A stretch of 45,859 nucleotides of DNA from a virus. Taxonomy: Duplodnaviria; Heunggongvirae; Uroviricota; Caudoviricetes. Shown in pieces: positions 2,591-44,851 of the stretch. Each line of letters opens with the position of its first letter. The first letter of the stretch is position 1. Both the position numbers and the translations under genes were made by a program. The notes under the pieces were generated by a model. It worked only from the letters and a program-made list of their open reading frames with translations. It was not told the DNA's origin and searched no databases. The stretch lies in IMG/VR virus record IMGVR_UViG_2718218168_000002. One strand, given 5' to 3'.

Positions 2591-3372
2591 TTAACCTCCT
2601 GCGGCGGTTCCGGTAGAGGCATCCAGTACAAGGCGTTCCCTAACCACGATAAAGTGCCGTCGCTCAACTCCACGTATTCCTCTTGTACCTGTCCTGCCAT
2701 ATACTCGCCGTGCTTTGAATAAATTAAAATCCAATCATCTTGAGCGGGCATTCGCTCACTACAGCTTATCCAACCATCCGGAGTTACCGGAGAGTTGCCA
2801 CCCTGAACAGTAGGCATATCCGGACCTTTGCGAATCGCCCTGGCAAGATCGATTGGGTCGTCGTACAACCAGTCACCTGTTTGCGGATGATTGGCCTCTG
2901 CCTGTTGCGCCGCCCACTCCAGACCGTCTTTGTGTCCTTGAAGATAGTCCAGCGGTAACTCATCACTATTACTTACAGGTTCGGCCTGAAGCATGGCGGC
3001 GCGGCAGGCGTTCCAGCCAGCTGTTCGCCCAAGCGCGTAAACTTCAGATGGCTCAAGATAATCAATGTCATGCCCGTCCTCATCGTCGTTCTCAGGTAAT
3101 GCAGCAGGTACTACCGGTACTGGCGGAGCGGCGTAGACCTCAATAATTCCATTATCAATAGGCCATTCTCCATCCTTGAGATAGTCACTTGTGCCGTCAA
3201 CTTGCTGTTCTGCAATGTGGAAAGCGCCTATTGGTTTTGCTTCCAGCGATGCCAGCGCAATCCGTGCCAGCTCTTCCGCTTCTTCTGCTGGCAGTACAAC
3301 GTTGCTACCAGGTCCGTATGTTTCGCGCCACTCCTTGATTGTCAGCAGTCGCTCTTTGGTAATAGTGGTCAT
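2587..3372 (-). CDS. Hypothetical phage early protein (possible DUF551-like C-terminus)
   Basis: 261-aa ORF in the leftward early operon; C-terminal WISCSERMP motif recalls DUF551. Weak assignment. Confidence 0.5.
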   Translation of the reverse strand: MTTITKERLLTIKEWRETYGPGSNVVLPAEEAEELARIALASLEAKPIGAFHIAEQQVDGTSDYLKDGEWPIDNGIIEVYAAPPVPVVPAALPENDDEDGHDIDYLEPSEVYALGRTAGWNACRAAMLQAEPVSNSDELPLDYLQGHKDGLEWAAQQAEANHPQTGDWLYDDPIDLARAIRKGPDMPTVQGGNSPVTPDGWISCSERMPAQDDWILIYSKHGEYMAGQVQEEYVELSDGTLSWLGNALYWMPLPEPPQEVN

Positions 3373-3375
3373 GTG

Positions 3376-3525
3376 TTAGTCCTCTGTAGCAGGTGATACG
3401 CCGTAGTTGCATTCTTCATAGAATATGTCTCTGCCTATTTCTTCGGCATCCTCTGGCGTGTCTGCTTCAAACTCAACAACCTTGCAATCATTAAATCCTT
3501 CGATAGTCACGATGTACTTAGCCAT
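3376..3525 (-). CDS. Small hypothetical protein
   Basis: Internal ATG of track ORF 3376..3606, preceded by AAGGAGAG Shine-Dalgarno; starts 2 nt after the upstream stop. Confidence 0.4.
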   Translation of the reverse strand: MAKYIVTIEGFNDCKVVEFEADTPEDAEEIGRDIFYEECNYGVSPATED

Positions 3526-3526
3526 A

Positions 3527-4126
3527 TCACTCTCCTTTGATGCGAATGCCTGCGGCGCGTGGCACATTAACTTCCACGATGCGCACAGTTGGTTTGTACA
3601 TCTCAATCGCTGTCAGCCAGTCAGCGCCGGTCATATGCTTTTCTGCATCGCCATTAGTCCATTGAACCGGCACACCAATAGCTTTCATCGCAATTTCTAT
3701 TTCCCCGGCAATGGCGCTTTTCCCGCAACCAGTAAAACCAGAGACAACGACAAGAACTTCGCCTTTGGCTGGTTTTATTTCCCGTGCTTCCAGTTCAGCA
3801 ATACGCTTACTCCCATCCGAGATAACACCTTCGTAATACTCACGCTGCTCGTTGAGTTTTGATTTTGCTGCCTCCAGTTCGTCCAGTAGTGCAATCACAT
3901 CAGGGGCACTGTCATCAACTACTGTTACGCGTGATTTTTCATAATGCTCGTCGGCAAGTGTTCGACCAATTTTGAAATCTCCATCACCACCATAACTGGA
4001 GCAGGCATAAGTGACATGTGCTCCAGATATACGCTGTATTGACATTTCCTCGCCACAAACAGAGCATTCAGGTACTGGCTTAGGTGAATAACGTTCCCGT
4101 AGCGCCTGATAATCAATCTTGCTCAC
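3527..4126 (-). CDS. Ea22-like early protein (hypothetical)
   Basis: 199-aa ORF with an N-terminal Cys cluster and a coiled-coil-like middle, as in ead/Ea22-family proteins of lambdoid early-left regions. Confidence 0.5.
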   Translation of the reverse strand: MSKIDYQALRERYSPKPVPECSVCGEEMSIQRISGAHVTYACSSYGGDGDFKIGRTLADEHYEKSRVTVVDDSAPDVIALLDELEAAKSKLNEQREYYEGVISDGSKRIAELEAREIKPAKGEVLVVVSGFTGCGKSAIAGEIEIAMKAIGVPVQWTNGDAEKHMTGADWLTAIEMYKPTVRIVEVNVPRAAGIRIKGE

Positions 4127-4178
4127 TGGTTGCCCCCTGCTTTTCTGCCTTCAACACCATGTGCGAACCATCATCCAG

Positions 4179-4367
4179 CTACCACGCGATCTCACCACCT
4201 TCAGCCATAACCAGTCGCCACACCAATTGAGCAGCCTCATTGGTAACATCACGACCTGGATCATTGCCAACGCGCATACGCCCACCTTCAACATCGCGCA
4301 TTTTTGCCAGCATGATAGTTTTTGATAGCGGTGAAAAACCAAGCTGTAGTCGTGCTGAATTACTCAC
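4179..4367 (-). CDS. Small hypothetical ORF
   Basis: 62-aa ORF in a head-to-tail chain of small leftward ORFs; no recognisable motif. Confidence 0.3.
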
Positions 4368-4549
4368 TGGTTGCCTCCTTTGCGCAACATCGCATTCAGA
4401 TATTTGTTTTTATTCACTGATGGAAAAGAATTTCTCTTAAGCAATTCCTCTCTCGATGGCATTGGCTTTACGCGTTGGCGAATAATCATTTCTGCCGGAA
4501 GAATGCCGGGATTGTATGCAAGTCCTCTCATGGTAAATTCCTCAGTCAT
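4364..4549 (-). CDS. Small hypothetical ORF
   Basis: Internal-start version of track ORF 4364..4564; start ambiguous. Confidence 0.3.
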
Positions 4550-7071: not shown

Positions 7072-7169
7072 TCAGGCAGCTTTGTTGTTCTGTTTACCAA
7101 GTTCTCTGGCAATCATTGCCGCCGCTCGTAATGCCCACACCATTGATTCTTATCAATAGTCGCAGTCAT
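7072..7169 (-). pseudogene. ral: ral (restriction alleviation) remnant with internal deletion and frameshift
   Basis: N-terminal frame gives MTATIDKNQWCG then a stop after 18 codons; a second frame gives WALRAAAMIARELGKQNNKAA. Both match recalled lambda Ral termini; about 100 nt of the middle are missing. Confidence 0.45.
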
Positions 7170-39826: not shown

Positions 39827-41025
39827 TGGCTCTGAACCTTGATTCTCTCGGTTTATCTGCAAAGGTAACCGCAGAGGGGATCAGTGCGCCTGATTATCAG
39901 ACGATACTCAGCACCCTGATTAGCTATTTTCAGCAGATTTATGGCAGTGATGCCTACCTCGAACCGGACAGCAAAGACGGCCAGATGGTGGCTCTGATGG
40001 CGCTGGCGATTCATGATGCCAATAATATGGCGATAACTGTCTACAACTGTTTTTCACCGGCAACCGGCTATGGGGCTGCACTGACCAGCAACGTGAAAAT
40101 AAATGGTATTTCACGTAAAGGCGCGACGAACTCTACGGTTGATTTGCTTCTTACAGGAACTGCCGGAACAACCATCATTAATGGCAGCGTGAAAGACAGT
40201 AATAATGTGATATGGCGTTTGCCTGCTTCAGTGGTGGTCGGCGTGGATGGTACAGTGATGGTGACTGCAACATGTTCCGTCAGTGGTGCAGTGGCGGCGC
40301 TGGCTGGAACTATCACTGAAATAAATACGCCAACCCGTGGCTGGGTTTCGGTAACTAATCCTGCTGCGGCTACCGTGGGCACTCCGGCAGAAACTGACGC
40401 GGAGTTACGTATCCGCCAGTCGCAAAGTGTTGCGTTGCCATCAATAACCCCATTTGAAGCACTGGATGGTGCTGTTTCTAATGTTACCGGTGTAACCCGC
40501 CACAAACTCTATGAAAACGATACTGGTTCGGAGGACGGTAACGGGTTACCGCCACACTCTGTTGCTGTAATTGTGGATGGCGGTGATGTAACGGATATTG
40601 CTCAGGCTATCAGAGGGAATAAAGGCCAGGGGACAGCCACTCACGGTACAACATCCGTTACGGTTCCGGATAAATACGGCAATCCCCATGTAATCAAATT
40701 CTCGCGTTCCAGTGATGTGCCTGTTTATGCCCGGATTAAATTAAAAGTTTTTACGGGTTATACCTCACAGATAGGGCAGCAGATCCAGCAGGCTATTTCC
40801 GACTATATCAATAGTCTGATGATTGGTAATTCGGTCCTTTTAAGTCGCATTTACTCACCGGCGAATCTTGGCGTGGTGAGTGGCGGGAATGCACGCTATT
40901 ACGATATTCAGGAACTGACGATTGGGAAATCCCCGGGGGCTTTGTCGTCATCAAACATTGATATCAGATATAACGAATCTGCGTCCTGTACCCCGGAAAA
41001 TATCGTTATAACGGTGGAGTCATGA
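39826..41025 (+). CDS. Baseplate J-like protein
   Basis: 399-aa ORF at the J position of the baseplate cluster. Confidence 0.6.
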   Translation: MALNLDSLGLSAKVTAEGISAPDYQTILSTLISYFQQIYGSDAYLEPDSKDGQMVALMALAIHDANNMAITVYNCFSPATGYGAALTSNVKINGISRKGATNSTVDLLLTGTAGTTIINGSVKDSNNVIWRLPASVVVGVDGTVMVTATCSVSGAVAALAGTITEINTPTRGWVSVTNPAAATVGTPAETDAELRIRQSQSVALPSITPFEALDGAVSNVTGVTRHKLYENDTGSEDGNGLPPHSVAVIVDGGDVTDIAQAIRGNKGQGTATHGTTSVTVPDKYGNPHVIKFSRSSDVPVYARIKLKVFTGYTSQIGQQIQQAISDYINSLMIGNSVLLSRIYSPANLGVVSGGNARYYDIQELTIGKSPGALSSSNIDIRYNESASCTPENIVITVES

Positions 41026-41702
41026 GCAAATACACCGAACTAATCACGAACTACCACGCCACCAAACCTAAATTTCTTGCACATGTTGATCTGATGACCC
41101 GGCCGCTTATTGATGTTGCGGCTGCCACCAGAGGGCTGATTACTGCATTTGATATTGACTCTGCGGTTGGTGTGCAACTTGACATTCTGGGATTGTGGAT
41201 CGGACGTAGCCGTGTTGTCAGCCAGCCTATTTCAGGTGTCTATTTCAGCTGGGATACCGACGGGCTTGGATATGATCAGGGTGTATGGCAGGGGCCATAC
41301 GATCCTGATTCCGGATACATGTACCTCAGCGATGAAACTTATCGTGTCATCCTTAAAGCGAAGATTGCGATTAATAACTGGGACGGACGGAATGATTCGC
41401 TTCCGGCAATTCTTGACGCGGCAACAGCAGGATCCGGACTGCGAATGCAGATAGTCGATAACCAGGACATGACGATATCGGTCTGGGTCTTTCCTGATAC
41501 TGATATTTCAGATGTATCGCGTGAGTTAATTGCGACAATTAAACAGGGGTATCTAACAGTAAAAGCCGCCGGGGTATGGGCGGGGAGCATTGAAACACCT
41601 TCGGTGGAAACTCCATCGGAAGGCTCTAAATTTTTTGGTTTTGATATGGATAACGAATTCATCAGTGGTTTTGATGTAGGGGCATGGGGAGTATTACTCT
41701 GA
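41022..41702 (+). CDS. Baseplate/tail protein I-like
   Basis: 226-aa ORF between the J-like and tail-fiber genes. Confidence 0.5.
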
Positions 41703-42535
41703 TGGCGAAAAATGACTTTAAAGCGTTTGCAACTGATCGAAATGCCAATGTTATGTCGCAGGAAGAATGGGAAGCGTTGCCTGCGCTTATATCCGGATTT
41801 ACAGCAGGGAAAGCATCCAGTGCGCAAGTCAATAAGGTTATTCGGCAGGCCAGCTTTATTGCTGCAGCTCTGGCCCAGTTTGTAAGTGATAAAACGCAAC
41901 GGGATGTGCTTGATAATGGTGATCTGCCCGGTTTTGTTGAATTGCTGGGATCGGGGTTTGCTGTTGAATACCTGAGCCGCAAGAATCCGTTTGGTGATAT
42001 CAAATCGGATGGCACGGTGAAAACGGCTCTCGAAAACCTTGGTTTGGGAGAAGGCTCTGCATTACCGGTTGGGGTGCCTGTTCCGTGGCCTTCAGCCACT
42101 CCGCCGACAGGCTGGCTGAAATGCAATGGTGCGGCTTTTTCTGCTGAAGAATACCCGGAACTGGCAAAGGCTTACCCGACCAATAAATTGCCTGATTTAC
42201 GTGGTGAGTTTATTCGTGGCTGGGATGATGAACGTGGTGTGGATAGTGGGCGAACTCTGCTTTCATCGCAAGGAGATGCTATTCGAAACATTACTGGCGG
42301 TTTTGGTCAGTTGCGCGTAAACAGCGAAATTAATGCAATTGTCGATGTTCAAAGTGTGAGTGGGGCTTTTTACGGAGGTACCTCAGTCCGGAATAACATC
42401 AATGTGTCTATGACATACGCTAATGACCGAAAAATCCGACAAGATGTTCACTTCTCGGCGGCAAATGTTGTTCCAACAGCAAATGAAAATCGTCCACGTA
42501 ACATCGCCTTTAATTATATTGTGAGGGCTGCATGA
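41702..42535 (+). CDS. Tail fiber protein with tail-collar motif
   Basis: Internal ATG overlapping the upstream stop; conserved collar-like segment [52 protein letters not shown]. Confidence 0.7.
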
Positions 42536-43137
42536 TGAATAAAGCTGTATTAAATAGTGAACTCATTGCCATAAAAGCGGGAGACATTATCATTTATAAT
42601 TATGATGGTGAAACGCGTGAATATATTTCTACATCAACTGAATATCTCGCTGTCGGCGTCGGTATCCCGGCATGTTCTTGTTTAGATGCACCAGTTACAC
42701 ATAAAGCTGGTTATGCAATCTGCCGTTCTGCAGATTTTAACTCATGGGAATATGTGCCAGACCATCGCGGTGAAATCGTCTTTAGCACCGAAACAGGAGA
42801 ATCAAAAGAAATCACAGCTCCGGGTGATTACCCTGATAATACAACCACTATCGCCCCGTTAACACCATACGATAAATGGGATGGTGAGAAATGGGTGACG
42901 GATACCGAAGCACAGCATAGCGCCGCAGTAGATGCAGCAGAAGCACAGCGCCAGTCACTGATTGATACTGCAATGGCTTCAATCAGTCTGATTCAGCTGA
43001 AATTACAGGCCGGACGGAAGTTGACGCAGGCAGAAACAACCCGACTTAACGCCGTGCTGGATTACATTGACGCGGTGACGGCAACAGATACCAGCACCGC
43101 GCCGGATGTCATCTGGCCTGAACTGCCGGAGGCGTAG
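42532..43137 (+). CDS. Tail fiber assembly protein
   Basis: 201-aa ORF directly after the tail fiber gene with a start/stop overlap; C-terminal motif [17 protein letters not shown]. Confidence 0.7.
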
Positions 43138-43291
43138 GCCATTCAATATCTGGCGCACCGGAAGTATCGACCAGCTCCAGTGCGTCCAGTTGACATCCTC
43201 CACGCCCTGAAGGACGGGGTTTTACGGCGCACCGGATAAATCCAAATGGAGTTTCGGGAGATAAATGAAACCGCAGCCACGTCGTATGCAA
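43109..43291 (-). pseudogene. Inverted C-terminal fragment of a tail fiber assembly gene
   Basis: Minus-strand ORF ending [21 protein letters not shown], homologous to the C-terminus of the plus-strand Tfa; overlaps its 3-prime end tail-to-tail. Confidence 0.4.
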
Positions 43292-43457
43292 GAACTTGCT
43301 GCGGTTCGCTGGTGAAGTGTCGATGGTGAGAGTATTGAATGATTTCCAACTGTTGCCAATTTTACTATGTTTTCAGTAGAACACTTAGACAAAACTGAGG
43401 CACACAAATCTTTGCACTGGATTGCAAGGCTTTGTGTTATTCGATAGTTAATGCGGA

Positions 43458-44615
43458 TCACTCCACCTTTTCATCAATCCAGTCCGCCCACCACTGCATC
43501 ATTTCTCTGCGCTTATCTAGATACTGAGCATGGTTGTAAATACCGCGCACAGATCCGCCGTTGGCATGTGCCAGTTGCACCTCAATCGCGTCAGCAGGCC
43601 ATTCGTGCTCGTTCATAATCGTGCTAAATTCATGCCTGAATCCGTGACCGCTTTCCAGACCCTCATAGCCGATTTGTTTGATCACAAGTAGAACCGCGTT
43701 CTCGCAGATTGGCTTCTTCTTATCGTTGCGCCCGGCAAAAACAAACTCTGATACTGGTTTGGTGATGGAGCTTAGCGTAGTGAGAAGTTCAACCACCTGG
43801 TCTGACATCGGGACCACATGAATTTTGCGTCCCTTCATCACACTGGCGTCGATGGTGATAATCCTGTTTTCAAAATCGACGTTCTTCCATAGCATGGAAC
43901 GAAGCTCTTTCGTTCTTAGGGCTGTGTAGCGTAAAACTTTGGTCGCAATGAGCGATACGATACTTCCTGAAAATGTTGCCAGTGCTTTGTTGAATGCCGG
44001 GATCTGGTCTGCAGGAAGAAACGGGAAGTTCTTCTTGCGGTATCCCTTCATGGCGTCTGCAAGGTCAGGTGCCGGGTTGTATTTAGCCCTTCCGGTGACA
44101 ATAGCGTAACGGAAAACTTCGCCGCATCTTCTGCGGGCTTTGTTGGCTCGCTCCATTGCACCGCGATCTTCAAATCTGCGGATTACTTCCAGCAGTTGCA
44201 TCGGCTCAATATCCTGAATTTCAAGGCTGCCGATGATAGGTAAAATGTCGTCATCAAACATTTTTGCAAGTTCATTTGCATAGCCTACTGACCAGACTTG
44301 CTTCTTGTGCTCGTACCATTCCTTGTAAATGGCGCTAAAGGAATTGTTGTTAGACGAAGCCTTTTTCGCTTTTACCGGATCGATGCCAACCGAGATGTCT
44401 TTCCTAGCGGTCCATGCTTTATCCCTTGCCTCCTGCAAAGTCATAAGCGGATATTTTCCGACGGTCAGGATTTTCTCTTTACCGTCAATCTTGTAGCGAA
44501 GCTGCCATACCTTTTTCCCGGATACAGGAACATAAAGGTACAGGCCATTACCATCGAGAAGGCGGTATGGTTTTTCTTTCGGCTTTGCTGCTTCAATCTG
44601 CTTAACGGTGAGCAT
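43458..44615 (-). CDS. intS: Tyrosine integrase (P4/KplE1 IntS type)
   Basis: Start placed at MLTVKQIEAAKPKEKPYRL (track ORF extends to 44651); C-terminal catalytic region HGFRHEF...HANGGSVRGIYNHAQY; adjacent to argW. Confidence 0.85.
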   Translation of the reverse strand: MLTVKQIEAAKPKEKPYRLLDGNGLYLYVPVSGKKVWQLRYKIDGKEKILTVGKYPLMTLQEARDKAWTARKDISVGIDPVKAKKASSNNNSFSAIYKEWYEHKKQVWSVGYANELAKMFDDDILPIIGSLEIQDIEPMQLLEVIRRFEDRGAMERANKARRRCGEVFRYAIVTGRAKYNPAPDLADAMKGYRKKNFPFLPADQIPAFNKALATFSGSIVSLIATKVLRYTALRTKELRSMLWKNVDFENRIITIDASVMKGRKIHVVPMSDQVVELLTTLSSITKPVSEFVFAGRNDKKKPICENAVLLVIKQIGYEGLESGHGFRHEFSTIMNEHEWPADAIEVQLAHANGGSVRGIYNHAQYLDKRREMMQWWADWIDEKVE

Positions 44616-44775
44616 GGGTAAAAATCCGGTGGGTAAAATTATTTTATCCACTTTTTACCCGTCATGGAGTGCGGCTGTCAACGATCTGACGCGAACCATG
44701 ACGAACCGTGAATATACGGAAGGCTTGATATTCAGGGGATTTTGCGGACTGGTACGGATGGGAGCGAACTGATAA

Positions 44776-44851
44776 ATGGTGTCCCCTGCAGGAATCGAAC
44801 CTGCAATTAGCCCTTAGGAGGGGCTCGTTATATCCATTTAACTAAGAGGAC
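44776..44851 (-). tRNA. argW: tRNA-Arg (anticodon CCU)
   Basis: Minus-strand cloverleaf: acceptor GTCCTCT/AGGGGAC, D stem GTTA/TAAC, anticodon stem AGCCC/GGGCT with loop CTCCTAA, T arm GCAGG-TTCGATT-CCTGC, discriminator A, CCA. Confidence 0.9.

Follow-up and report, generated by a model that had tools for sequence, protein, structure and literature searches.

The DNA lying between the tail-fibre assembly gene (tfa) and the integrase gene of the prophage studied here is very probably the non-functional scar of a Pin-type invertible tail-fibre segment of the Hin/Gin/Cin/Pin family. The window, by which the entire stretch of 45,859 nucleotides in IMG/VR virus record IMGVR_UViG_2718218168_000002 is meant, contains baseplate genes upstream of a tail-fibre gene, followed by an intact tfa gene, three short relics and a convergent IntS-type integrase gene (Table 1). 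The relics are derived from an inverted alternative chaperone gene (tfa'), from one end of an IS200/IS605-family element and from the pin DNA-invertase gene, and a 60-amino-acid open reading frame (ORF) that reads across all three appears to be an accidental open frame rather than a gene. A correct annotation would list a tfa' pseudogene, the remnant of an IS200/IS605 end and a remnant of the pin 3' end, and would treat the prophage as having one fixed fibre specificity. Beyond this correction of the annotation the scar is of little significance.

Table 1. Features in and around the putative switch scar (positions in the window)
Feature	Position	Strand	Basis
Tail-fibre gene, 283 aa; constant N-terminal part to ~42026, variable C-terminal tip 42053-42535	41684..42535	+	
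Single Pin/Gin-type crossover site, pix-like, 26 bp, TTCTCCCAAACCAAGGTTTTCGAGAG on the minus strand	42027..42052		
tfa, intact tail-fibre-assembly (chaperone) gene, 201 aa	42532..43137	+	Pfam Caudo_TAP, E 4.7e-33
60-aa ORF, TTG start	43109-43291	-	ORF list
tfa' relic (inverted alternative chaperone gene, YfdK type), stop plus last 26 codons	43109..43189	-	
51-nt remnant of one IS200/IS605-family terminus, with subterminal hairpin CGCCCTGAAGGACGGGG	43190..43240	+	
pin DNA-invertase 3'-end relic	43241..43268	+	Alignment with L002 pinE and L003 pin fragment
Non-coding spacer normally 3' of pin, to the stop of the convergent integrase gene	43269..43457		
IntS-type tyrosine integrase gene	43458..44651	-	Pfam Phage_integrase and Arm-DNA-bind_3
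tRNA-Arg(CCT) gene argW; yfdC beyond	44777-44851		

The inverted tfa relic and its intact partner

Both the Tfa-like C-terminus of the minus-strand ORF and its tail-to-tail overlap with the intact plus-strand tfa gene, as described in the original prediction, were confirmed. The C-terminal 26 amino acids share 25 residues with YfdK of E. coli K-12 (E 3e-16) and likewise 25 of 26 with the 146-amino-acid inverted Tfa' of E. coli TUM1880 (comparison sequence L002; E 8e-14), and the underlying 78 nt show 92-96% nucleotide identity to these intact relatives, with the homology to both ending sharply at 43189. The stop codon of the ORF falls inside the 3' end of tfa, resulting in an overlap of 29 nt (43109-43137). 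An overlap of the same length is found in the intact switch of TUM1880 (tfa 3003-3605, tfa' 3577-4017) and in the tfaS/yfdK pair of K-12 (7078-7106). The same 81 nt are called in RefSeq as a pseudogene ('tail fiber assembly protein, missing N-terminus') in four further comparison sequences (L001 and L004-L006). The view of the ORF as a Tfa fragment holds for these last 26 codons only, the N-terminal 34 residues being unrelated to Tfa and produced by antisense read-through of the IS-end remnant and the pin 3' end, so that the ORF as a whole is a chimera.

Within the window, the evidence for an inverted tfa copy is thin when taken alone. The ORF shares only a short motif with the plus-strand Tfa (11 of 21 amino acids), and its match to Pfam Caudo_TAP (PF02413) is confined to residues 36-55, corresponding to profile positions 111-130 of 131, with 20.5 bits against a cut-off of 22.1. 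A full-length domain above the Pfam gathering threshold is therefore not present in the ORF, while the plus-strand Tfa scores 114.6 bits. Nucleotide inverted repeats in the region 41000-43700 are limited to pairs of 12-20 nt, which is the chance level. The inverted self-comparison proposed with the original prediction accordingly recovered the protein motif and no nucleotide repeat longer than 13-20 nt, and is borderline by itself. The low motif identity, the background level of the repeats and the sub-threshold Pfam score would all be compatible with a chance resemblance, in which the ORF mimics a Tfa C-terminus as the antisense or neighbour of the tfa end and no alternative cassette ever existed. 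This is vanishingly improbable, however, as the 78 nt encode nearly the complete end of a different, intact Tfa, the overlap has exactly the geometry seen in intact switches and one such switch occupies the same locus in a sister prophage; the comparisons with TUM1880, K-12 and E. coli PEC122 refute it. The identity of the tfa' relic is thus proven by comparison outside the window.

The fibre tip in the expressed position contains a Collar domain of phage tails (Pfam PF07484, E 1.3e-15), and its chaperone partner in that position is the intact tfa gene. The encoded protein is 82% identical to the Tfa of TUM1880, and its C-terminal 95 amino acids are 96% identical to the product of the K-12 pseudogene tfaS. 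Of the two alternative cassettes of tip plus chaperone that lie tail to tail in such systems, one is therefore complete in the window, while the other is represented by 26 tfa' codons, without its tip (tip').

The crossover site and the remnants next to tfa'

The search for hin/gin/pin-like recombination sites recommended with the original prediction yielded one Pin crossover site in the window, with no matches in 100 shuffles. As in a functional invertible segment, the site is part of the fibre reading frame and falls where the constant part meets the variable one. Homology of the fibre gene to the variable tips of TUM1880 starts at 42029/42044, while the homology of its constant part to K-12 yfdL (41975-42053) breaks off precisely at this site, whose 26 positions are all shared with the sites in yfdL and in L001. 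The inverted repeat of the e14 P segment, TTGGTTTGGGAGAAGG (PMC12529663), occurs exactly and once within the surviving crossover site (42039-42054), and its reverse complement is absent from the window. No second crossover site is present in the window, where the next-best match has 9/26 mismatches; the pair of inverted sites is thus lacking. The intact switches of TUM1880 and PEC122 (L015) carry two to three crossover sites in mixed orientation. The three sites in TUM1880 (2011-2036, 2528-2553 and 4378-4403; two one way and one the other) are accompanied by an extra promoterless tip cassette in direct orientation, and this multi-cassette layout resembles the three-repeat system of PMC4272514.

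An invertase gene had been reported as missing, with the integrase gene following directly. None is indeed encoded in the window: tblastn with PinE detected no serine recombinase anywhere in the 45.9 kb (best E 4.9), and no invertase adjoins the segment. Traces of pin persist, however. The sequence GGAGATAAATGA at 43257-43268 corresponds firmly to the C-terminal end of Pin (G D K stop), while AGTTTCG (43250-43256) is probably pin sequence with a 2-nt deletion, which would extend the remnant from the last 12 nt of the gene to ~19 nt. The assignment of 43241-43249 to pin is uncertain. From 43257 onward the window corresponds to PEC122 from 6001, i.e. 12 nt before the pinE stop, and to TUM1880 from 5001, and the region 43257-43436, comprising the last 12 nt of pin and its ~170-nt 3' flank, is 94% identical to TUM1880 and 97% identical to PEC122. 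In Gin/Cin/Pin systems a Fis-dependent recombinational enhancer is located within the 5' part of the invertase gene. This enhancer is presumed lost from the window, since homology to pinE begins only 12 nt before the stop and the 5' part of pin is absent.

Two hairpins are found in the spacer downstream of the pin relic (43269-43306 and 43402-43437). Its 43269-43436 portion is among the most widespread pieces here, with matches in many lambdoid phages (Stx, HK and phi80-type) as well as in ~2900-4300 of the 5426 E. coli genomes. Wrong annotations of it as a 'capsid protein' or 'tail fiber' fragment are occasionally encountered. An Rfam scan of 42900-43600 returned nothing beyond a weak, sub-threshold plus-strand match to CssrB, a Shigella chromosomal sRNA, at 43239-43303 (23 bits against a gathering score of 76, E 0.019). 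The match overlaps the pin-terminator hairpin and probably reflects shared prophage sequence or chance.

The 51 nt separating the tfa' and pin relics were also considered as diverged pin or Tfa sequence. This was rejected, as tblastn with all switch proteins of TUM1880 gave no match there and the dispersed-repeat signal pointed instead to an IS200/IS605 end. When the junction was used as the query, 43190-43240 proved to be a dispersed repeat in ~3600 E. coli genomes. At the three loci examined, the repeat forms the terminus next to the 3' end of an IS200/IS605-family tnpA, and one of these three elements also bears a divergent tnpB/InsQ. The window sequence 43199-43240 matches the end beside the tnpA 3' end of annotated IS200/IS605 elements (tnpA plus tnpB/InsQ; L008, L009, L011 and L013) at 41 of 42 positions, and all copies, which share the terminus and subterminal hairpin, finish at GGATAA; the assignment of the first nine nucleotides (43190-43198) to the IS end is not firm. 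The true IS end (GGATAA/A) abuts the pin relic, while the IS-internal side abuts tfa'. A coding sequence for a tnpA (Y1/HUH) transposase was not detected in the window by tblastn with the TnpA of L013 (best E 0.94), and 43190-43240 would appear to be a solo IS end, not an element.

A solo 51-nt copy identical to 43190-43240 is also present near nleD in E. coli UTME-14 (L010/L014, 2816-2866), where it shares the left boundary TTGACATCC with the window in the unrelated context of an effector island. The interpretation of the 51 nt as a miniature mobile element, considered on account of the same boundaries in L010, was unsupported, with blastn and tblastn showing no IS homology past 42 nt. The sequence just left of the L010 copy bears, by eye, a loose likeness to the IS interior (CCTTAT...ATCC).

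Intact and decayed relatives of the switch

The geometry of Mu G and P1 C-type invertible segments, originally proposed from the overlap, finds support in the surviving Pin site, in the opposite orientation of the K-12 block and in the complete switch of PEC122. The sister prophage in the latter strain, inserted at argW/intS, carries the fibre gene, tfa, tfa' (-), tip' (-), pinE and intS, and an inverted pair of crossover sites flanks ~1.7 kb. Its baseplate genes are 93% identical to those of the window, and identity is 97% from the last 12 nt of pin through int, argW and yfdC, while the tfa/tfa' block is 92% identical in inverted orientation. Collinear homology to an intact switch at the orthologous locus is hence found on both sides of the scar, which is consistent with a relic.

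In the ancestral state, a serine invertase gene pin would have stood just before intS, as it still does in PEC122, and would have flipped the ~1.7-kb segment lying between the fibre-gene site and its inverted counterpart beside pin. With each flip the C-terminal fibre tip would have been exchanged together with its own chaperone gene, tip and tfa for tip' and tfa'. In the window prophage the segment appears locked in the orientation giving the Collar-domain tip and the 201-amino-acid Tfa. Missing from it are ~120 N-terminal tfa' codons, tip', the other crossover site and almost the entire pin gene, including the 5' part that would bear the enhancer. An IS200/IS605-family element may first have inserted near the 3' end of pin, followed by a single ~2-kb deletion from inside the IS into tfa' that left 51 nt of the IS end. 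This order of insertion and deletion is a reconstruction, and no complete IS was found at that pin position among 5426 complete E. coli genomes.

The comparison with the tfaS/yfdK/yfdL region of the K-12 prophage CPS-53 (KpLE1; yfdL' - yfdK - tfaS'), also put forward with the original prediction, showed the same block in opposite orientation to intS, with the homology interrupted at the crossover site. CPS-53 occupies the same argW/yfdC site and resembles the window in its integrase (96% nucleotide identity), in the absence of an invertase, in the 29-nt tail-to-tail overlap between an intact tfa gene and an inverted, truncated one and in the identical 26-bp site in the fibre gene. The tfaS and yfdK genes match 42847-43189 of the window in opposite orientation relative to the collinear int-argW region. 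Unlike in the window, a gp53-like tip and the 146-amino-acid YfdK stand in the expressed position in K-12, the 201-amino-acid type is a pseudogene with 100 codons kept, the fibre gene is itself a pseudogene, tfaS is separated from intS by the gtr O-antigen operon and yodE, and the junction lacks an IS-end remnant. The opposite orientation of the block and the end of the fibre homology at the site argue that the K-12 and window prophages represent a single switch caught in its two orientations, with a separate deletion having frozen each.

As in the e14 P segment with pinE, and in the Mu G-gin and P1 C-cin systems, the crossover site of the window lies in frame at the junction of the constant and variable fibre parts, and its sequence is shared with these systems. 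In e14-type systems the tip and chaperone cassettes are arranged tail to tail, with pin directly downstream in the intact relatives TUM1880 and PEC122. The window, by contrast, retains neither the second site nor the alternative tip, has little left of tfa' and lacks the invertase and, presumably, its enhancer, making it a relic rather than a working member. The closest sequenced phage is Escherichia phage vB_EcoM-611R5, with 96% identity over the aligned 82% of the structural-gene region 22000-43460. This phage shares the baseplate, fibre and tfa genes and the inverted tfa' overlapping tfa, but its tfa' is still full-length (146 aa), tip' survives as a 55-aa fragment and the invertase is cut down to 104 aa, which represents an earlier or independent stage of decay. 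A further prophage at argW (L003) has 41 tfa' codons joined to a pin HTH fragment at an ATTGC microhomology, which appears to be an independent deletion. PEC122, vB_EcoM-611R5, L003, the window and K-12 CPS-53 can be arranged as a clean series of decay states of a single host-range switch, with both frozen orientations at one chromosomal site and one loss seemingly involving an insertion sequence.

The segment in the window is predicted to be incapable of inversion, because one site is left and both the invertase and the alternative tip are gone. The need for two sites and an enhancer is established for the Hin/Gin systems. PMC3798978 likewise gives two inverted sites on the same DNA and a Fis-bound enhancer as requirements for inversion. 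Continued switching of the fibre gene by a host-encoded invertase acting in trans, such as PinE, PinQ or PinR of other prophages, is extremely unlikely. While Pin-family enzymes do work across prophages, all three inverting the e14 P segment (PMC12529663), whose repeat the surviving site reproduces perfectly, there is no partner site in the window for it to recombine with, and the deletion of the alternative tip leaves nothing to swap in. The single site, the absent invertase and the intact sister locus instead favour the fossilised fibre cassette of the original prediction.

Distribution of the scar and the prophage boundaries

While the relic state of the cassette was correctly foreseen, its decay is not limited to the window prophage. 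The composite scar is also present in L001, L004, L005 and L006 and in phages HK97 and HK106. Overall, no fewer than five other E. coli genomes among those examined carry it, and the whole junction occurs in 6 of 5426 E. coli genomes. Its chromosomal settings differ, with the scar adjoining ybhB-bioA in L001, pphA in L005 and dusA in L006. In HK97 and HK106 it lies between tfa and sib/attP and includes, as in the window, the 26 tfa' codons, the IS-end remnant and the pin 3' end, at 95-96% identity. Both phages belong to the lambdoid siphoviruses and have a lambda-type attachment site; the window prophage, a myovirus similar to SEN34 and vB_EcoM-611R5, sits at argW and has only the tfa-end module in common with them. 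The scar would thus be older than the window prophage, since it is present in unrelated phage backbones, and appears to move with the 3' end of the tfa module through recombination among phages. A prophage of the window type in E. coli FJ_Ec_21 (L001, 5359-5442), next to ybhB-bioA in the lambda attachment region, has just 84 nt from the 3' end of an IntS-type integrase gene behind the scar, suggesting a rearranged or chimeric prophage end.

The conservation of the scar in viable phages such as HK97 could be taken to indicate co-option, either of the ORF as a small protein, its frame being open in all six copies examined, or of the hairpins (the IS-end hairpin at 43204-43225 with the TTTT after it and that at 43269-43306) as a late-operon terminator facing int. 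Such a function is very unlikely. The copies are too alike to inform on selection or constraint, the ORF start region contains a frameshifting indel between copies, translation would begin at a TTG codon and the N-terminal 34 amino acids are read from the opposite strand of unrelated relics. In RefSeq nothing but the 81 nt is called, and that as a pseudogene, and the IS hairpin is not flagged by a terminator scan. There is still a slight chance that the lone site recombines with the sites of other resident prophages through their Pin invertases, or that the hairpins of the IS end and the pin terminator have been retained for shielding the late operon and the convergent int gene from each other. 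An active lone site would allow the exchange of fibre tips between prophages or large chromosomal inversions.

Wrecked switches of this kind are common in E. coli prophages and have already been annotated, pseudogene calls being routine, and tfaS of K-12 is the textbook case of a truncated inverted tfa beside an intact one. A literature search found no paper describing exactly this scar. The IS-end remnant at the junction adds a small detail to an otherwise ordinary scar.

The integrase-argW region of the window is 96% identical to intS-argW of K-12 and the yfdC region 97.9%, the latter identifying the host as E. coli or a very close relative. The gtr O-antigen-modification operon found between the tail genes and int in K-12 CPS-53 is absent here. 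A 15-nt direct repeat, TGGTGTCCCCTGCAG, corresponding to the 3' end of argW, is present at 1690-1704 and 44777-44791. These repeats are likely to be the attL and attR cores, bounding a ~43.1-kb prophage that fills nearly the whole window. Approximately 300 nt inside the left prophage end, a second exact match of 16 nt (1998-2013, E 8e-4) to the internal T-arm region of argW (44791-44806) could be a fragment of an older integration or due to chance.
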